From a virus: a stretch of 42,798 bases of DNA. The stretch is taken from IMG/VR virus record IMGVR_UViG_3300045988_177667, positions 1 through 42,798 of that record, one strand, 5' to 3'. Position numbers and translations under genes: made by a program. Shown in pieces: positions 1-42,798 of the stretch (position 1 is its first letter; each line of letters opens with the position of its first letter). The notes under the pieces are model-generated. The model saw only the letters and a list, made by a program, of their open reading frames with translations, searched no databases and had not been told where the DNA came from.

Positions 1-55
1 TCACATTCGCACTCGCCACCCTCCACCCCAACTACTTCGTCCTCTGGACCGCACA
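1..55. repeat. 55-bp terminal overlap of the window, identical to 42744..42798 (circular-assembly closure)
   Basis: Bases 1-55 (tcacattcgcactcgccaccctcc...ggaccgcaca) recur exactly as the last 55 bases. The overlap lies inside the terL reading frame, which is continuous across it. Confidence 0.95.
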
Positions 56-19542: not shown

Positions 19543-19793
19543 GAAACGCTCCGCAGAAGTAGGCTACAACGCATCGCAGAATGCTCCGGGCTGCAGGATT
19601 CCTCGTGAGTCCATCCTGCTGAGACTCCGCGCTTCGTCGTCACCGCAACACCGTTATCGGTGATCTCGATATTCCCTGACGGGGAGTCAATGACGGTAAC
19701 TCCCGTGCGGTCCGAAATGCGGGGCGACGTAATCGTGTTCTGCAATTCCTTAGCAATAGTCAGCGCAATTTCCCGGCGATCAATCTTGTTCAT
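19539..19793 (-). CDS. Hypothetical protein
   Basis: An 84-aa ORF, translationally coupled to its neighbours. Confidence 0.5.
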   Translation of the reverse strand: MNKIDRREIALTIAKELQNTITSPRISDRTGVTVIDSPSGNIEITDNGVAVTTKRGVSAGWTHEESCSPEHSAMRCSLLLRSVS

Positions 19794-20311
19794 TATTTCA
19801 TCTCCATAGCCGATGGCGTGACGCCGGTCTGCCCCTGATAGTGTGATCCGAGACCATTGGTGCCGTATGGCATGCTGGCCGGCCTGTCCAGATCCTCGAA
19901 AGCGATCTGCGCAATCCTATCCCCCGGGAAAAGACGAGCAGCCTTACTGGAGTGTAGATTGGCGATTTCCAGAGTCACGTTTCCCTGGAATCCCGGATCA
20001 ATGTATCCCGCAGACACGTGCACGAGAATTCCTCGGCGCGCCCACGACGACTTACCTTCCACCCTAGCTACTAGGTCGGCTGGCACGCTGACTTTCTCCT
20101 GGGTGGACGCGAGAATAAACTCACCCGGCAACAGCTCATAACCATTCTCGCCGATGGTGACATTCTCGTCGTCGTGACGGTAGGTGATAATGTTCTCGTC
20201 TAGCCGCACTTCTACCGACGCCGGTTGAATAGACAACGGTTTACGCCAGTCGGAGATGAGTTCACCCCAATCGATTCTGCGTCGGAGAGTGAAATCACTC
20301 AGTGTAGCCAT
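19793..20311 (-). CDS. dcd: dCTP deaminase / dUTPase-superfamily enzyme
   Basis: The 172-aa product has VEGKSSWARRGILVHVSAGYIDPGFQGNVTLEIANL. This closely parallels the E. coli Dcd core ([33 protein letters not shown]). Confidence 0.8.
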   Translation of the reverse strand: MATLSDFTLRRRIDWGELISDWRKPLSIQPASVEVRLDENIITYRHDDENVTIGENGYELLPGEFILASTQEKVSVPADLVARVEGKSSWARRGILVHVSAGYIDPGFQGNVTLEIANLHSSKAARLFPGDRIAQIAFEDLDRPASMPYGTNGLGSHYQGQTGVTPSAMEMK

Positions 20312-20765
20312 TCTGGCGACTCCCGTCTTCGTTTTCCTTGATCATATGGACCGTGTAACCTTTATTGCGTAGGATTGCTTCGGCTTCGAGGGCAAGTGCA
20401 GGCTTCTCTCCCGGGATAATTTCTACCATGTCTTTACCGCGTTCCGACAGTACGATCGCGCAGACGTACGCATCGTCGTCCGACGAGTCGCTGTAAGTGA
20501 GCACATACCCGCCTATCTCATCCGAATATGTGCACCTAGTAAAAGTGACCCTTCCTTCCCGCCATGAACGCAAGGTAAGTGTTACTCCCTGAACAAATTG
20601 CACGGTGTGCATAAGCCCACGGATCGCGGCAGGCGGATCGATAGCATAACTCCTGATAGTGAAGTTACAGTCGGTGGCATGCATAAACGCAGCCGCGCCC
20701 CACAGTTCACCACATTTCGCCAAATCAACGAAAACAATGTTGACAATATTTTCCATAACGCTCAT
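20295..20765 (-). CDS. Hypothetical protein
   Basis: A 156-aa ORF that overlaps both neighbours. Confidence 0.5.
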   Translation of the reverse strand: MSVMENIVNIVFVDLAKCGELWGAAAFMHATDCNFTIRSYAIDPPAAIRGLMHTVQFVQGVTLTLRSWREGRVTFTRCTYSDEIGGYVLTYSDSSDDDAYVCAIVLSERGKDMVEIIPGEKPALALEAEAILRNKGYTVHMIKENEDGSRQNGYTE

Positions 20766-21769
20766 CTCTCTTCTGGAATGTAGTTACTGAGGTGATCGTG
20801 TGAAATGGCGGACATGAACTCTGTGAGCCTGTCTCGAACCTCCCTGGCACGCCCCTGTGGGGTGAGCTGTCTATCAATAGTGTCCCAGTAGACGTTTCGC
20901 AGAATTGCAATCACCGACTGGCTTCCATGGTCGTTGACGAGTTCACGAAGATACCACGCCGCCTTTCCCATATCAACATTCTCGTCAGCATCATTCTTGT
21001 GACCCGCCCTGAAAATATACTTCAAAGCACTGCCTGTCAGATAGTCTTTGTCGCGAATGAAAGTGATGGGCTCAGGATCGAGGGCCACATAATGCGATGG
21101 GTGAGACACGGCATTCTCGTGCACATCATCCTTGACATACTCATCATTCTTCATCACGATATGGAGAACATTATCGTTGGTGGTCAACTCATAGAGCTGC
21201 TCGTCGAACGTGAGAAACGCTCCCCCACCATTCTCATCCTCATACCAAATGCACCATTCGCCAGTGAAATACCGACAAACCTTCCTGACAAGCGCGTCAT
21301 AATCGTCGGAGACATGAAAACGAATCGGTTCGCCCACAAACTTCAACTCACAGCCGGGATCAGACTTATATCTGCCAATACGCCACCAATACCAGCCATC
21401 ATGCTTCTGTTCCAGAGAAACGTAGCGGCGGCTCCAACACTCTACCCGCCGTTCACTGAAAGAATTGCGGCGGACGTGCACCTCCCAAAACCCATCATGC
21501 GGCACTACCTTCGAAACATACTCATACACGCCATTCGGATAGTAAATCTTCTCGCACCCATCATCTACGAGTGACACCACATAATCTCCTCTTTCTGTCT
21601 GTGTGATCGAATACTCGTCGTATCTGAAATAGTGTATCCGTTCTACACCGTCATGAATAGAATTGAAACCAATCCCCTTGCTGTTGTCGGTTTGTGCTAT
21701 GATTCTCTCTTTATTGCCGTCTGGCAAGTACAGCCAAACCGGTTTCAAAAACACCTTGTCCACAATCAT
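20762..21769 (-). CDS. Protein with a DUF3310-like C-terminal domain
   Basis: The 335-aa product has a C-terminal HPSHYVALDPEPITFIRDKDYLTGSALKYIFRAGHK...MGKAAWYLRELV. This matches the DUF3310 pattern as I recall it. Confidence 0.55.
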   Translation of the reverse strand: MIVDKVFLKPVWLYLPDGNKERIIAQTDNSKGIGFNSIHDGVERIHYFRYDEYSITQTERGDYVVSLVDDGCEKIYYPNGVYEYVSKVVPHDGFWEVHVRRNSFSERRVECWSRRYVSLEQKHDGWYWWRIGRYKSDPGCELKFVGEPIRFHVSDDYDALVRKVCRYFTGEWCIWYEDENGGGAFLTFDEQLYELTTNDNVLHIVMKNDEYVKDDVHENAVSHPSHYVALDPEPITFIRDKDYLTGSALKYIFRAGHKNDADENVDMGKAAWYLRELVNDHGSQSVIAILRNVYWDTIDRQLTPQGRAREVRDRLTEFMSAISHDHLSNYIPEER

Positions 21770-33648: not shown

Positions 33649-35212
33649 TGTACGATGGTTCCGCTATCTGATCCCGCAGAATCGCCTCAACGAGATCATT
33701 ATCCACAATAGCCCCTTCCGTCCGAAACTTCACGCCCCGACGAAGAATATACTGCCGATACTCCTCCACACTCCGCGGAGACAAATTCTTCGCCTCCAAA
33801 ACCTGATACAAACGCGTCTCAGTCGGCGGATTACTACTGAAATCATCAACCATACGCGTCAAATCCGGAACAAAAACATAGTCGACCATTTTCAACGCGT
33901 CAGGCAGCCAGAAATCGGCGGCCAGGCTGAAAGCCTTCCTCACCGCGGACGATGACACGCTCATCTGCTGCTCAAAAAGAGACAGAATAGCAGCCACGCG
34001 CATAACATGATTCCCCATACGATCAATGACCGCCTGCACTGCCCGCTGGAAAGGCGACTCGCGGGCCGCCTCCCTACCCCAGGCTCGCACCGTTTCAACC
34101 CAAACATTCCGAGCAGACTCAGTCACAGTCATAGTCATTGGCGTATTGACAGGCCAAAATTCGGTGGCACAAGTGACAGTACCACGGAATTCATGCTGCA
34201 TCATACCCAACATTGTTGAAATGCGCTCGGAAGCATGCTCAACGAAACCATCGCCACCGTGCACGCCCCGGTCATTGTTGGTGACCCATCCGAAAGACGA
34301 CGGATCAGACTGGCGATTCTCCTCGTCCAACGCGAAAAGAATGCGCGGACCCCACCCAGTCTCAAACAAAGACTGTGACATACTATCGACTACGTCGCCG
34401 AGAATCCCAGTGCCGCAGAAAGCAAGAGAATGAGGAACCCTCTCACTATCAGCTCGCCTGACGCCGTCGTCTCCGACCCGCACTGACTCGACCGTTTTGC
34501 CCGAGTAGACGTCGGTCAAGAAACCGATGAGCCCACTACGATAACCCTCACCCTGTGACGCAGAATACATGTTCTGCAATTCGTCCACAAACATGATAGA
34601 CGCCCCGCCAGGACGCTGCGCCATCCGAAGATTCAAACCTTCGGCCGTCACATTCGACCCGAACAAAACATTCGCCATCAAGGAACGCTCGCACGGACTA
34701 TTATCAATAGTGTTCAGCAAATCTTTACGATCAGCCTCGAACCCTGCGATACTATTATTGATATCGTCCCGCTCCGTCCGATACTCATCAATATCGACAC
34801 GCCCACTCCTCTTTTCCAGGGATTCCAGGCGGCGGTACAGCATGCGGAGTGCTGAATCCAGCTCCTGCACGGCCGCCAAAGACCGAGACGAATCCATCCA
34901 GAACGCGCCCACGCAGTCTTCAAAAAAGCTACGCACCAAAGACTGCGCCGTCGTCTTCCTCGACAAAGTAGACGCCCCCAGACAATGCGAATACAGGGTC
35001 AACGGCACCATATTCTGCGCGTTCGCAGACAAATGAGTCCTCGCAGACAACGGGGCGGACACCATCGTCAAGAAAGTCGTCCACAAAAACCTGAGTGGCG
35101 TCTCCGGCGACCTGGACTGCAAATAGTCAATGATCCTGTCAACGAACCAATCATAGTGCACGCCCCCATCCGGGGACGCGAACTCGTAATCCGCAATCCT
35201 CTCAACACTCAA
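33641..35212 (-). CDS. DUF3987-like putative replicative helicase/NTPase
   Basis: A 523-aa ORF with a degenerate P-loop (CLGASTLSRKTT) and a Walker B-like IMFVDEL. It is paired with the primase-like gene. Confidence 0.4.
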   Translation of the reverse strand: MSVERIADYEFASPDGGVHYDWFVDRIIDYLQSRSPETPLRFLWTTFLTMVSAPLSARTHLSANAQNMVPLTLYSHCLGASTLSRKTTAQSLVRSFFEDCVGAFWMDSSRSLAAVQELDSALRMLYRRLESLEKRSGRVDIDEYRTERDDINNSIAGFEADRKDLLNTIDNSPCERSLMANVLFGSNVTAEGLNLRMAQRPGGASIMFVDELQNMYSASQGEGYRSGLIGFLTDVYSGKTVESVRVGDDGVRRADSERVPHSLAFCGTGILGDVVDSMSQSLFETGWGPRILFALDEENRQSDPSSFGWVTNNDRGVHGGDGFVEHASERISTMLGMMQHEFRGTVTCATEFWPVNTPMTMTVTESARNVWVETVRAWGREAARESPFQRAVQAVIDRMGNHVMRVAAILSLFEQQMSVSSSAVRKAFSLAADFWLPDALKMVDYVFVPDLTRMVDDFSSNPPTETRLYQVLEAKNLSPRSVEEYRQYILRRGVKFRTEGAIVDNDLVEAILRDQIAEPSYSE

Positions 35213-39726: not shown

Positions 39727-39765
39727 AATTAGACACTGTCTAGCTGTGTTAGACAGTGTCTAATT
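39727..39765. promoter_or_regulatory. Paired palindromic operator-like sites AATTAGACAcTGTCTA / TAGACAgTGTCTAATT
   Basis: Two 13-bp palindromes (TAGACAnTGTCTA) lie 20 bp centre-to-centre. Together they form a 16-bp inverted repeat with a 7-bp spacer. Confidence 0.5.
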
Positions 39766-39910: not shown

Positions 39911-39970
39911 GGCGCGTGTTGTGTTACGTGCGTGCTCGCAGAGCTGCGCGCGCACTACACAACACACGCC
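39911..39970. repeat. Structured hairpin element, copy A (conserved 35-nt core, 14-bp outer stem)
   Basis: The sequence is ggcgcgtgttgtgt-tacgtgcgtgctcgcagagctgcgcgcgcact-acacaacacacgcc. The core matches copy B at 33 of 35 positions. Confidence 0.6.
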
Positions 39971-40139: not shown

Positions 40140-40484
40140 GTGAGCAGAACAAGCACAAAAGAACACAAACAATTCAGAAAACAAGTACTCGCCAGAGCAC
40201 AACAAATGGGCATCACACACTGCCCAGCATGCGGAACCAAACTCCAATACAACAACAACGGACAACGCAAACCCAACAGTGCCGAAGCCGACCACATAAT
40301 CCCAGCCTCGTTAGGCGGAACCAACCACCCAGACAACGGGCGAGTCCTCTGCGCCAAATGCAACAGCAGACGCGGCAACGGACGAGGAGGAAAAGGAAGA
40401 GCACGCCACTACCAGAAAAACGAAAACGAACGAGACAGACTACCCGTAGCCGTCATGCCCACCGAACACACCAACACATGGTGA
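40140..40484 (+). CDS. HNH endonuclease (terminase-associated type, judged by position)
   Basis: The 114-aa product reads HCPACGTKL...EADHIIPASLGGTNHPDNGRVLCAKCNSRRGN, the classic HNH with Cys pairs. It has a GTG start. It is located upstream of terS/terL, as in HK97-like cos phages. Confidence 0.8.
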   Translation: MSRTSTKEHKQFRKQVLARAQQMGITHCPACGTKLQYNNNGQRKPNSAEADHIIPASLGGTNHPDNGRVLCAKCNSRRGNGRGGKGRARHYQKNENERDRLPVAVMPTEHTNTW

Positions 40485-40580
40485 ATCACCCACCGCCATT
40501 CCAGCAGCAGAAGAAAGACGGGACACAGAGAAAGCGAGGAGAAGAAGAGACAGAGAAGAAGAAACAAAGGAAGACGCAAT

Positions 40581-40637
40581 GGTGTTCGGGGATAACGTGC
40601 GTGCTCGCAGGGCTGCGCGCGCACTACCCCGAACACC
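40581..40637. repeat. Structured hairpin element, copy B
   Basis: The sequence is ggtgttcgggg-ataacgtgcgtgctcgcagggctgcgcgcgcacta-ccccgaacacc. The perfect 11-bp outer stem differs in sequence from copy A but keeps complementarity. Confidence 0.6.
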
Positions 40638-41532
40638 AACACACAAAGGAAGAAGAAGAGGAAGAAGAAGAGAATACGGGAACAGTGAACTAAGACAAGA
40701 CACCACACACCCACCACCACCACCATTCCACAATACGCAACACAATGCGACACGACATGCACCACTACCACCGCACACGTTACAACATGACTGATGTGCA
40801 GACAGTAAACACCGCACGCCCTTCCACCCAACACAAACCATCACCGCCATCCCACAATGACACACCCCCTGACACAAAGACACCACCCTAAACCAACAAT
40901 GCTGTGACAGCAAACACACAGATGGGGAGAAGGGAAGAGGAAAGAGAAGAATGAGACACAGTCTCACCACAATGCCGCCCCCGCACCACCGCACTTCCTC
41001 CACCCCGCAACACAAGAGGAACAAGACAACACAAGAGAGACGGGAACAACATGAAGGGGATGACCCAACCCAACACAGGACACCACAGCACACACCACCC
41101 CCCGCCATTCAACGCGGCCACCACACAAACAGGAGAGGGACACCGATACAAATGGGAGGGGACACCAACATCAGACAGGGAGGTCAGTACTGCAACACCC
41201 GCCCTTCACTCACCATGCCACCCCCATCCACCATGCCACCCCACCATCCACACTGCCCCCACCCACCACCAATGCGAGGGGGGAGCAGACAGAGGATACC
41301 CCACCACAGACGAACACACACCCACACACACACACCGCACACCCGGCAAGACACAGCACACGACACGACCGCAGTACCGATGAGTACTGCACCGGGATAG
41401 GCGGGGCACGGGCCACACGCACTGACCGGGCAGGACAGCAGCAGCACACACCACCGCCATTCCACACACCACACACCAACGAGGATGGACACCATCCACT
41501 GTCTCACCTCACACTGTTCGCGTTCATACAAC

Positions 41533-41650
41533 CAACGAACGATCATGATCAACGACGATCAATGATCATCGTTCAATGATTGATCAACGAACAATGAACG
41601 ATGAACATGATGATGATCAATGATGATCAACAACGAACATGATCAACATG
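41533..41650. repeat. Iteron-like array rich in GATC (TGATCAAYRA and CAACGAAC words)
   Basis: Eight GATC sites lie at 41541, 41547, 41557, 41564, 41582, 41615, 41625 and 41641. (T/C)GATCAA occurs six times and CAACGAAC three times. Confidence 0.6.
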
Positions 41651-41766
41651 ATGATGAACACACGACGATGATGTGATGCATGACATGCATACCAATACCA
41701 TGCACCATGCATGGTGCCAACGCACGCCACAAGGCAATCGCATAACGCACAAACGCACAAACGCAT

Positions 41767-41811
41767 AAAAATGCATAAAAACAAAAGAAATGTTACAAAA
41801 ACATGCAAAAA
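41767..41811. other. Phased A-tracts (predicted intrinsically bent DNA)
   Basis: A5 runs begin at 41767, 41777, 41797 and 41807, with A4/A3 runs at 41783 and 41788. This gives a 10-bp phasing. Confidence 0.5.
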
Positions 41812-42044
41812 CATTCAAGGCACAATCCAACGATGGCGTTCAAAAAAACCATGGCAACAAAACGAGACGAACAAAAAGGGGGCCCCAAACCCGTAAGGGA
41901 TCCCTTAAAGTAGGACCCGCATCACAAAACAAGACAGGGAACGGAACAAACGAGACGCACACCACACAATTTATGTGATGGGGGCCACTCCCCCTCCCCC
42001 ATCCGGCCGCGAACACCCCGAAGGTCTGCCCATCCCTCCCTGCT

Positions 42045-42171
42045 TGTGGAAAACCCTGTGGATAACTCCAGTAACCCATGCCACAATGTGATCGCCATCA
42101 TGTGGAAAACTCCCAAACCTGTGGAAAACCCTGTGGATAACTTTCTAGCTTGTGGATAACCCTGTGGAAAA
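42045..42171 (-). promoter_or_regulatory. Cluster of seven co-oriented DnaA-box-like 9-mers (TTATCCACA x3 and TTTTCCACA x4 on the - strand)
   Basis: TGTGGATAA occurs at 42057, 42132 and 42151. TGTGGAAAA occurs at 42045, 42101, 42120 and 42163. Six of these form three 22-bp units with 12-bp box spacing. Confidence 0.6.
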
Positions 42172-42201
42172 CTCTTGCCGGACGTGACCAGTATCACCAC
42201 A

Positions 42202-42207
42202 TATAAT
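42202..42207 (+). promoter_or_regulatory. TATAAT -10 hexamer 7 nt upstream of the 42215 ATG (possible leaderless late transcript)
   Basis: The sequence is cacaTATAATaggaaacATG. No convincing -35 was found. The last DnaA box lies about 31 bp upstream. Confidence 0.35.
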
Positions 42208-42214
42208 AGGAAAC

Positions 42215-42496
42215 ATGACAACCCACACAAACACCACAATCACCATATACGAACCCAACAGCCCCGCACCCATCACAGACGCCACAAACACAGGCAACCC
42301 AACACTCATACGCCAAGCACTCGCACACAAAATCGCCACCGTCATAGACGACCCCAGAACAGGCGACACAGCACTCACAAAACTCACCGCACAACTCATA
42401 CAAATCACAGACCAACTCGCCACCACACAAAACGAAAACACACAAACACACACCCCCGACATTCCAAACGAAACACAAACCTGGGACGGCATCTAA
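42215..42496 (+). CDS. Candidate small terminase subunit (called by position only)
   Basis: A 93-aa Thr/Gln-rich ORF that ends 4 nt before the terL ATG. Confidence 0.35.
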   Translation: MTTHTNTTITIYEPNSPAPITDATNTGNPTLIRQALAHKIATVIDDPRTGDTALTKLTAQLIQITDQLATTQNENTQTHTPDIPNETQTWDGI

Positions 42497-42499
42497 AAA

Positions 42500-42798
42500 A
42501 TGAGCGAAAAACACCTAAGCGAAATCGCCGCCCACCTCACCCTCCCAGAAAACATCACACACACCGCCTGGCCACCAGTCCAACGCCGCCTCCAAGAAAT
42601 GCAATACCCCCTCGACATATGGCAGCAAGACTGGCTCAAAGCAATCCTCGCAAAAAGAAAAGACGGCCACTACGCCGCCAGCATCGACGGAATCCAAGCC
42701 AGCATCCCCAGACAGGTCGGCAAAACATACACAATCGGCGGCCTCACATTCGCACTCGCCACCCTCCACCCCAACTACTTCGTCCTCTGGACCGCACA
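42500..42798 (+). CDS. terL: Terminase large subunit, N-terminal part (continues at base 3 across the circular junction)
   Basis: ATG at 42500. The product reads MSEKHLSEIAAHL...ASIPRQVGKTYTIGG with a P-loop. The frame is open to the window end and is in phase with 3..1250 through the 55-bp overlap. Confidence 0.85.
   Translation, partial: MSEKHLSEIAAHLTLPENITHTAWPPVQRRLQEMQYPLDIWQQDWLKAILAKRKDGHYAASIDGIQASIPRQVGKTYTIGGLTFALATLHPNYFVLWTA
42744..42798. repeat. Second copy of the 55-bp terminal overlap
   Basis: Identical to bases 1..55. Confidence 0.95.

Follow-up and report, generated by a model that had tools for sequence, protein, structure and literature searches.

DnaA-type boxes beside the cohesive-end site of an uncultivated phage

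What do seven copies of a site typical of the bacterial replication initiator do immediately upstream of the packaging genes of a phage, and which protein would occupy them? The question is raised by IMG/VR virus record IMGVR_UViG_3300045988_177667, a viral DNA of 42,798 nucleotides (nt) that was analyzed over its full length and is referred to below as the window. An initial annotation, made from the sequence alone, had noted a cluster of DnaA boxes at 42045–42171 and proposed that bound DnaA could gate late transcription, seed replication, or be sequestered, with recognition sites of the small terminase subunit (TerS) as a fallback. When the genome ends, close relatives, and unrelated phages are considered together, the seven 9-mers are best explained as DnaA-type boxes that would form a cosB-like segment of a cohesive-end site (cos).

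The box array and its conservation

A motif scan located TGTGGAWAA seven times on the + strand of this region (starts at 42045, 42057, 42101, 42120, 42132, 42151, and 42163), three times as TGTGGATAA and four times as TGTGGAAAA. The number, common orientation, and two versions of the boxes given by the initial annotation were thus borne out by the scan and by sequence shuffling. The window as a whole contains eight copies, compared to a mean of 0.66 and a maximum of 3 in shuffled sequences, none of 100 of which reached eight, and a chance origin of the array is thereby excluded. The sole copy outside the array, a perfect TGTGGATAA at 33699–33707 on the − strand, lies within the 3′ end of a DUF3987 primase/helicase-like gene and is compatible with chance, 0.66 copies being expected in the window. 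All seven boxes of the array fit the Schaper-Messer consensus TT(A/T)TNCACA, which may not be the consensus of the host. The description of TTTTCCACA as a one-mismatch variant of TTATCCACA was right as to the sequence, but under TT(A/T)TNCACA, TTTTCCACA is itself a consensus box.

Six of the boxes are arranged as three 22–base pair (bp) double units, TGTGGAWAA-CCC-TGTGGAWAA-C, with a box step of 12 bp and a gap of 3 bp, as had been described; the units start at 42045, 42120, and 42151. Double units are spaced 31 bp start to start, which corresponds to about three helical turns. Two other conserved elements accompany the boxes: a palindrome between unit 1 and the single box (Table 1) and a dyad, CRTGAC...ATCAC, at 42183–42199, between the last box and the TATAAT that precedes the first packaging gene. 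Both may be sites for other proteins.

Conservation of the array was assessed in close relatives. A search of IMG/VR with the large terminase subunit (TerL) yielded 62 loci whose TerL is 94 to 100% identical to that of the window, and the set used for the analysis comprised 44 distinct complete intervals between cos and terS from about 60 near-identical metagenomic phages, with 293 boxes in total. The array is present in all 44 versions and consists of 5 boxes in 11 of them, 6 in 2, 7 in 25, 8 in 3, and 9 in 3, the differences in copy number being whole units gained or lost. The logo calculated over the 293 boxes is C-Y-TGTGGAWAA-C-Y-C. TGTGGA(A/T)AA accounts for 287 boxes, the C located 3′ of the box is invariant (293 of 293), and variation is confined to box position 3 in the TTNTCCACA reading (T in 219 boxes, A in 68, and G in 2). 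Invariance extends to 58 of 63 box columns, compared to an identity of 75 to 87%, or a divergence of about 15%, in neighboring non-coding DNA of the same genomes.

The spacing of the boxes is similarly constrained. Within units, the box step is 12 nt (125 cases); between units, it is 19 to 20 nt (71 cases, with 30 different spacer sequences), and a 44-nt step was found in 41 cases. The first box is located 18 nt from the left genome end in 43 of the 44 versions, and the last box is located 29 to 30 nt from the TATAAT in 42, whatever the copy number. In the window, the latter distance is 30 nt and the packaging gene starts with an ATG at 42215, in agreement with the annotated position of the cluster end shortly upstream of both. 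These two fixed distances tie the array to the cos end on one side and to the beginning of the packaging operon on the other. Purifying selection acts on the boxes, their flanks, and the spacings; the sequence of the spacers and the copy number drift.

Physical genome ends and the position of the array

At least nine independent contigs and one Logan assembly start at TGCCCATCCCTCCC, that is, at position 42027 of the window, and in contig L047, an Illumina adapter tail is joined directly to TGCCC at the same position. On the other side, 42015 is the last base of contigs L070 and L098, a Nextera adapter is found slightly further in, after 42008, in another contig, and the complement of 42016 is the exact base at which the fold-back contigs L032 and L057 reverse direction. 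We infer that the window represents a cos phage whose ends, at 42015 and 42027, are separated by a 3′ overhang of 11 nt. In the virion DNA, 18 bp lie between the left end and the first box of the array, a context that the initial annotation had missed. Assembly artifacts and repeat-induced contig breaks were rejected as the cause of these ends because the ends are separated from the repeats by 18 nt and carry fused adapters, the turning point of two assemblies is one and the same base, and the deposited ends of cultured relatives are homologous. Exact genome ends are thus available for an abundant group of uncultivated, human-associated phages. Some of the deposited contigs (L032, L057, L047, L071, and L092) carry fold-back inversions, Illumina/Nextera adapter remnants, or a chimeric junction at the true ends; as library artifacts, these are errors of the deposited sequences, although they help to locate the ends.

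The cos region is ordered as follows: the stop codon of an HNH endonuclease gene, a G5/C5 hairpin, about 30 nt, the overhang, and the C-rich left end. The deposited ends of the nearest cultured relatives (TerL 46 to 50% identical), namely, Rothia phage Spartoi, Arthrobacter phage MrSmee, and P. freudenreichii phage G4, show a homologous order, which is also matched by many of the 80 actinobacterial prophage loci that were recovered. Spartoi, MrSmee, G4, and many of the prophage loci have an equivalent G-run/C-run hairpin 25 to 35 nt ahead of the end. In the wider family (L104–L109, L063, and L110–L189), the left end is AGCGATCTCTCCCC after ...CGGCAT and is followed by a T-run and CCAC(A/G) at about +18. 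The cos architecture is therefore conserved across many actinobacterial phages and prophages.

The position of the array between the nick site and the small-terminase gene is that of cosB in phage lambda, a 120-bp segment with three R sites, which are TerS sites, and one IHF site in the order R3-I1-R2-R1 (PMC4669245). Both segments are about 120 bp long and contain several repeated protein sites (PMC4669245). A host DNA-binding protein takes part in lambda (PMC4669245), and a host factor would do so in the window phage. Unlike lambda, which has 5′ 12-nt overhangs, a winged-helix TerS, and no HNH protein, the window phage has 3′ 11-nt overhangs, a 93–amino acid (aa) TerS, and repeats that are direct DnaA-type boxes. 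A parallel in other respects is HK97, whose TerS binds a 15-bp site (+15 to +29 from the cos cut) by reading an A-tract and one G (PMC11331095). HK97 likewise combines HNH, TerS, and TerL, and its TerS, too, lacks a classical DNA-binding domain (PMC11331095). The 3′ overhang is 10 nt in HK97 and 11 nt in the window phage, and in both, the recognition site is placed about 15 to 18 bp inside the left end, with an A/T tract beside G/C. However, HK97 has a single 15-bp site, whereas the window family has 5 to 9 boxes over about 130 bp, and the window TerS has no detectable sequence or fold similarity to that of HK97. Lactococcal phages of the 936 type, with an 11-nt cos, have flanking inverted and direct repeats and putative terminase-binding sites R1–R4 (PMC6105707); their repeats are specific to the phage group and unlike DnaA boxes.

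Occurrence in unrelated phages and candidate binding proteins

The 22-mer double box TGTGGAWAACCCTGTGGAWAAC was scanned across IMG/VR, the resulting counts being lower bounds. It was found in at least 96 unrelated loci with a GC content of 34 to 70%. Many of the matches are arrays in which a 600-nt stretch holds as many as 13 boxes; tandem CCTGTGGATAAC repeats with steps of 11 to 12 bp are among them, and some double boxes adjoin iteron-like repeats, e.g., AGATCTAAGACTAAGATCT, and replication genes. Many others lie just upstream of terminase genes. Eight of the 10 large neighboring open reading frames (ORFs) tested encode TerL proteins of three PHROG families, and loci L226 and L220 add two more; the small ORFs between the array and TerL fall into different PHROG families or match none. 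With a panel of TerL sequences, TerL was located within 3 kb in 21 of the 96 loci, with the box pair upstream of it in 20 of the 21 and co-oriented with it in 16. These 21 loci are not fully independent and represent about 16 lineages.

Among isolated phages, the 22-mer is present in 308 INPHARED records, with hosts that include Microbacterium, Streptomyces, Lactococcus, Escherichia, Salmonella, and Klebsiella. The boxes of Microbacterium phages are located about 250 to 380 nt from the left end, and the record of Berlinvirus A7 has eight matches in its first 150 nt, beside the TerL gene. A second, unrelated clade of HNH-cos phages (L207, L228, L279, and L280; GC content of about 58%, TerL of phrog_9) has the order HNH gene, genome end CCCTTCTCGCT, array, small ORF, and TerL, the genome end being set by the shared first base of two contigs. 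The array of this clade is located about 32 nt inside the left end in the same orientation as the window array, and its TGTGGA(T/A/C)AA boxes mix TGTGGATAA, TGTGGAAAA, and TGTGGACAA. TGTGGACAA corresponds to the actinobacterial-type box TTGTCCACA. Overall, the motif is widespread and apparently unremarked, recurring upstream of several terminase families and near the ends of Microbacterium and T7-like phages.

The extended motif C-TGTGGAWAA-C matches the flanks of boxes R1 (CCC-TGTGGATAA-C) and R4 of the E. coli origin, oriC, whose sequence was confirmed in E. coli genomes at 100% identity. More generally, the window array resembles chromosomal arrays (oriC, datA, and DnaA-regulated promoters) in its consensus boxes, R1/R4-type flanks, co-orientation, and gaps of 2 to 3 bp. 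In oriC, the DNA to be unwound is situated on the 5′ side of TGTGGATAA, at a distance of 13 bp from R1; in the window phage, it is the cos overhang that lies 5′ of the array, at 18 bp. Unlike oriC, the array has no adjacent AT-rich unwinding element or DnaA-trio and is located in a phage genome, beside packaging genes. Since an identical motif with identical pair geometry occurs across unlike hosts in phages with different terminases, a universal host protein is suggested as the binder. No shared phage-encoded binder is evident from the sequences, the intervening small ORFs being unlike one another and the TerL proteins belonging to at least three PHROG families. A phage-encoded protein resembling DnaA domain IV was also considered and rejected, no such domain having been found among the 31 ORFs scanned. 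The identity of the boxes proposed in the initial annotation gains support from the R1/R4-like flanks, from variation at position 3 only, and from the recurrence of the 22-mer across unrelated phages.

The reading that we tentatively favor, at somewhat less than even probability, is that the array is bound by DnaA and exerts its effect in cis where cos meets the late operon; this estimate covers transcriptional and packaging roles together. Host DnaA, rather than a phage-specific protein, would oligomerize on the co-oriented boxes and form a nucleoprotein block in cis at the boundary of the two. The block may determine the time at which transcription reads into the terminase operon or is initiated there. 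Also or instead, it may be an architectural platform, the role played by IHF in lambda cosB. Such a platform would aid a terminase that comprises TerL, HNH, and the 93-aa TerS, in which no classical DNA-binding domain is seen, and that would cut 18 bp away. If DnaA occupies the array, a universally conserved host initiator is wired into the late-expression switch or the packaging of a phage, roles that have so far been assigned to phage proteins and, in lambda, to IHF.

Several observations weigh against a DnaA-bound array acting in cis. A role for DnaA in packaging was not found in the open-access literature. A consensus scan revealed no −35 element matching the TATAAT, and since a Shine-Dalgarno (SD)–like purine run follows, the TATAAT may not be a promoter; the gating of late transcription put forward in the initial annotation fits the fixed distance of 29 to 30 nt. 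The location of box pairs upstream of TerL was rejected as weak evidence of a functional link: The bias is largely expected because non-coding DNA lies mainly upstream of terS. In relatives of the wider family, the slot at about +18 holds one or two T-run+CCAC(A/G) copies whose orientation is opposite to that of the window boxes. About half of these elements do not fit the DnaA consensus (CCACG, CCACC, and CCCCA; variants were tallied partly by eye), and by analogy, the element of the closer relatives looks more like the HK97 TerS site. In lineages whose gene 1 encodes a protein with an N-terminal Zn-ribbon, 20 of 21 have no TTTCCAC upstream of this gene, and those inspected, which are Bifidobacterium prophages, have direct repeats of their own in the +18 slot, which argues that the slot is primarily a phage-specific recognition site. 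The repeats are lineage specific, e.g., AAGCGTGACG, GGTAACG, GAAACGTTTC, and AATGGGTGAAA. Within the wider family, the sequence of the slot co-varies with the type of gene 1.

These properties of the slot point to an alternative that we consider somewhat unlikely, namely, that the array is a complex cosB recognized by TerS only. An oligomer of the 93-aa protein, alone or with TerL and HNH, would bind the repeats, position cos cleavage, and start packaging, while the DnaA likeness would be accidental and derive from the T-tract+CCACA element of the family, inherited and then multiplied. The place of the array agrees with this: It is located 18 nt from the nick on the terS side (genome end at 42027, first box at 42045 or +19 to +27, and terS at 42215), and homologous cos architecture in Spartoi, MrSmee, G4, L063, and many prophage loci comes with T-run+CCAC(A/G) at the same offset. 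The Zn-ribbon lineages, mostly without TTTCCAC and with repeats of their own where inspected, agree with it as well. Simple and complex cosB variants coexist in lambda-like phages (PMC4669245), and in 936-type phages, repeats and putative terminase sites surround cos (PMC6105707). However, a recognition sequence would be expected to be specific to its own TerS, and here the same 12-mer unit and 22-mer pair precede unrelated terminases with unrelated small ORFs and occur beside iterons in apparent origins; phage-specific proteins would not be expected to converge on identical sequences of this kind. The orientation of the array is opposite to that of the T-run+CCAC element of the family and the same as in 16 of 20 unrelated phages. 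The model of the window TerS shows neither a DNA-binding domain nor a match in PDB, a weak point given that HK97 TerS also has no classical domain. Recognition by TerS alone, with accidental resemblance to DnaA boxes, had been our first conclusion, drawn from the position and the conserved flanks. It was revised because the same flanks occur at R1 and R4 of E. coli and because the 22-mer is widespread in unrelated phages. The terS-site fallback of the initial annotation likewise gains from the position inside the left cos end but loses from the presence of the same 22-mer before unrelated terminases. It is plausible that a T-tract+CCACA element for TerS, already similar to a DnaA box, was replaced by or elaborated into true box arrays.

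A stronger version of the favored reading would make host DnaA a packaging cofactor, both here and, independently, in other HNH-cos phages; we regard this as clearly unlikely. DnaA bound to the boxes inside the left cohesive end would substitute for the DNA-binding domain missing from a minimal TerS. The array would face cosN as R1 of oriC faces the unwinding element, and DnaA could bring in or place the terminase and, once nicking has occurred, assist in melting the cohesive-end duplex of 11 bp. If true, packaging would be coupled to the state of the host replication initiator.

Could the array instead be a replication origin, with cos merely sharing the same non-coding region? DnaA would then open nearby DNA and recruit the primase-helicase of the phage. 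The double boxes that adjoin iteron-like repeats and replication genes in other viral contigs are consistent with such a function. So are the 1.5-kb non-coding stretch before cos, with its GATCA/ATGATGA repeats and a 27-mer of 85% AT, and the fact that no dedicated initiator protein was recognized among the scanned ORFs of the phage. However, no AT-rich unwinding element is adjacent: The nearest 27-mer above 80% AT (41775) is about 245 bp away, across the cos cut, and the boxes are flanked by the GC-rich cos segment and the terS leader. The replication genes, including those for a primase-polymerase and a D5-type helicase, are on the − strand, 4 to 16 kb away rather than next to the boxes, and the fixed distances of 18 nt and 29 to 30 nt are left unexplained. 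Primase-polymerases and D5-type helicases usually act without DnaA. We consider an origin very unlikely, and seeding of replication, one of the functions initially proposed, is the weakest of the DnaA scenarios.

Similarly little probability is given to a DnaA sink, in which an array without any function in cis would titrate DnaA on replicating phage DNA and stop host initiation in the manner of datA. All boxes are of the consensus type, their number is free to vary between 5 and 9, and many phages have box arrays in their non-coding ends, as a sink would allow. A sink does not account for the anchoring to the cos end and the TATAAT, for the phasing of the units, or for the orientation relative to the terminase genes.

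Clusters of DnaA boxes near phage ends have a precedent in T5-like phages, where eight DnaA boxes, all of them paired with a spacing of 3 bp, lie in the non-coding iss region of the terminal repeat and DnaA binding has been proposed (bioRxiv 10.1101/866236). Consensus box pairs with a 3-bp gap in conserved non-coding DNA near a genome end are common to both. T5 has long direct terminal repeats, and its boxes are organized in inverted-repeat modules about 8% into the first-injected DNA, a proposed injection stop. In contrast, the window phage is a cos phage of the siphovirus type without terminal repeat, and its boxes are direct repeats at the end where packaging starts; inverted-repeat modules in a first-entering terminal repeat, which characterize the T5-type injection stop, are not what the window array consists of. 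The array joins two known kinds of element, cos recognition regions and phage-borne clusters of DnaA boxes, and is not a new category. The point of interest is that sites of the host-initiator type are placed at a packaging site.

Genome layout and other features

The first and last 55 nt of the window (1–55 and 42744–42798) are identical, and the window is therefore a circular assembly of a 42,743-bp phage genome. The features around cos are listed in Table 1.

Table 1. Features of the cos region and the packaging genes.
Feature	Coordinates	Strand	Comments
HNH endonuclease gene	40140..40484	+	Pfam HNH/HNH_5, E = 1e-10; PHROG HNH families; last gene before the right genome end
GGGGG-CCACT-CCCCC hairpin	41980..41994	.	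Conserved in this terminase family as a right-side element of cos
cosN, 11-nt 3′ overhang	42016..42026	.	5′-CCCCGAAGGTC; inferred from contig ends and fold-backs
Left genome end, C-rich segment	42027..42044	+	TGCCCATCCCTCCCTGCT; AGCGATCTCTCCCC in relatives; contig starts, adapter junction, deposited ends of isolated relatives
Double box unit 1	42045..42066	+	TGTGGAAAA-CCC-TGTGGATAA-C; first box 18 nt from the left end
Palindrome (T/C)CACA-A-TGTGA	42081..42091	.	Conserved; between unit 1 and the single box
Single box	42101..42109	+	TGTGGAAAA; start-to-start distances of 44 nt from the second box of unit 1 and 19 nt to unit 2
Double box unit 2	42120..42141	+	TGTGGAAAA-CCC-TGTGGATAA-C
Double box unit 3	42151..42172	+	TGTGGATAA-CCC-TGTGGAAAA-C
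TATAAT, candidate −10	42202..42207	+	Conserved; 30 nt after the last box; SD-like purine-rich stretch downstream
93-aa small-terminase-like gene	42215..42496	+	ATG at 42215; first packaging gene; phrog_1459 "terminase small subunit," E = 6.8e-5
Large terminase gene, 5′ part	42500..42798, on across the assembly junction to 1250	+	497 aa; 55-nt overlap, joined translation; Pfam Terminase_6N

The 93-aa protein can be aligned with the gene 1 products of Spartoi and MrSmee and with the protein annotated as TerS in G4. Its family comprises 436 proteins, one of which is named a terminase small subunit in UniRef. AlphaFold2 modeling from a shallow alignment gave a predicted local distance difference test (pLDDT) score of 54; with 71 sequences, pLDDT rose to 75 and a three-helix hairpin was predicted, in which no classical DNA-binding domain was seen. 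Foldseek and sequence searches of PDB with this protein returned coiled-coil noise only and matched no solved small terminase. TerL of the window is 46 to 50% identical to terminases of Arthrobacter, Rothia, and Propionibacterium phages, and its gene is followed by the portal and capsid genes. HNH proteins are the usual partners of HK97-type cos terminases, and Spartoi, MrSmee, and G4 have an HNH gene at the equivalent position.

The replication module occupies 26 to 38 kb on the − strand and encodes an SNF2 helicase, a primase-polymerase, a DUF3987 helicase, an exonuclease, and an AAA_24 protein. No integrase was found among the window genes, Rfam and tRNA scans of the window revealed no element and no tRNA, and a blastn search of INPHARED with 41000–42798 matched no isolated close relative. 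As to the host, the best prophage TerL is 51% identical (Brachybacterium); the nearest capsids of isolated phages, those of Brevibacterium and Schaalia phages, are 59 to 61% identical, and all lysin homologs are metagenomic. No more than an actinobacterial affinity is evident, and the samples are human-associated.

Between the HNH gene and cos, region 40500–42000 is a stretch of ~1.5 kb that is A/C-rich on the + strand (AT skew of +0.54 to +0.64), contains no convincing ORF, and is about 83 to 87% identical in relatives. The GATCA/ATGATGA-rich repeats are located at 41530–41680 in it and the 27-mer of 85% AT at 41775. This non-coding DNA might function as a long leader, give rise to a non-coding RNA, belong to an origin, or serve as packaging-termination DNA of the cosQ type. 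The HNH gene is bracketed by a 42-nt direct repeat (39926–39967 and 40595–40636) whose copies are 88% identical and partly palindromic, which suggests a cassette-like insertion or paired regulatory sites. Further upstream, a perfect 16-nt inverted repeat with a 7-nt spacer, AATTAGACACTGTCTA / TAGACAGTGTCTAATT, lies at 39727–39765 between the divergent early and late blocks and, from its sequence, looks like an operator. Last, a small leftward block after the tail genes contains a dCTP deaminase/dUTPase-like gene (19793–20311, − strand) and a DUF3310-containing gene (20762–21769, − strand), which may serve nucleotide metabolism or DNA modification.

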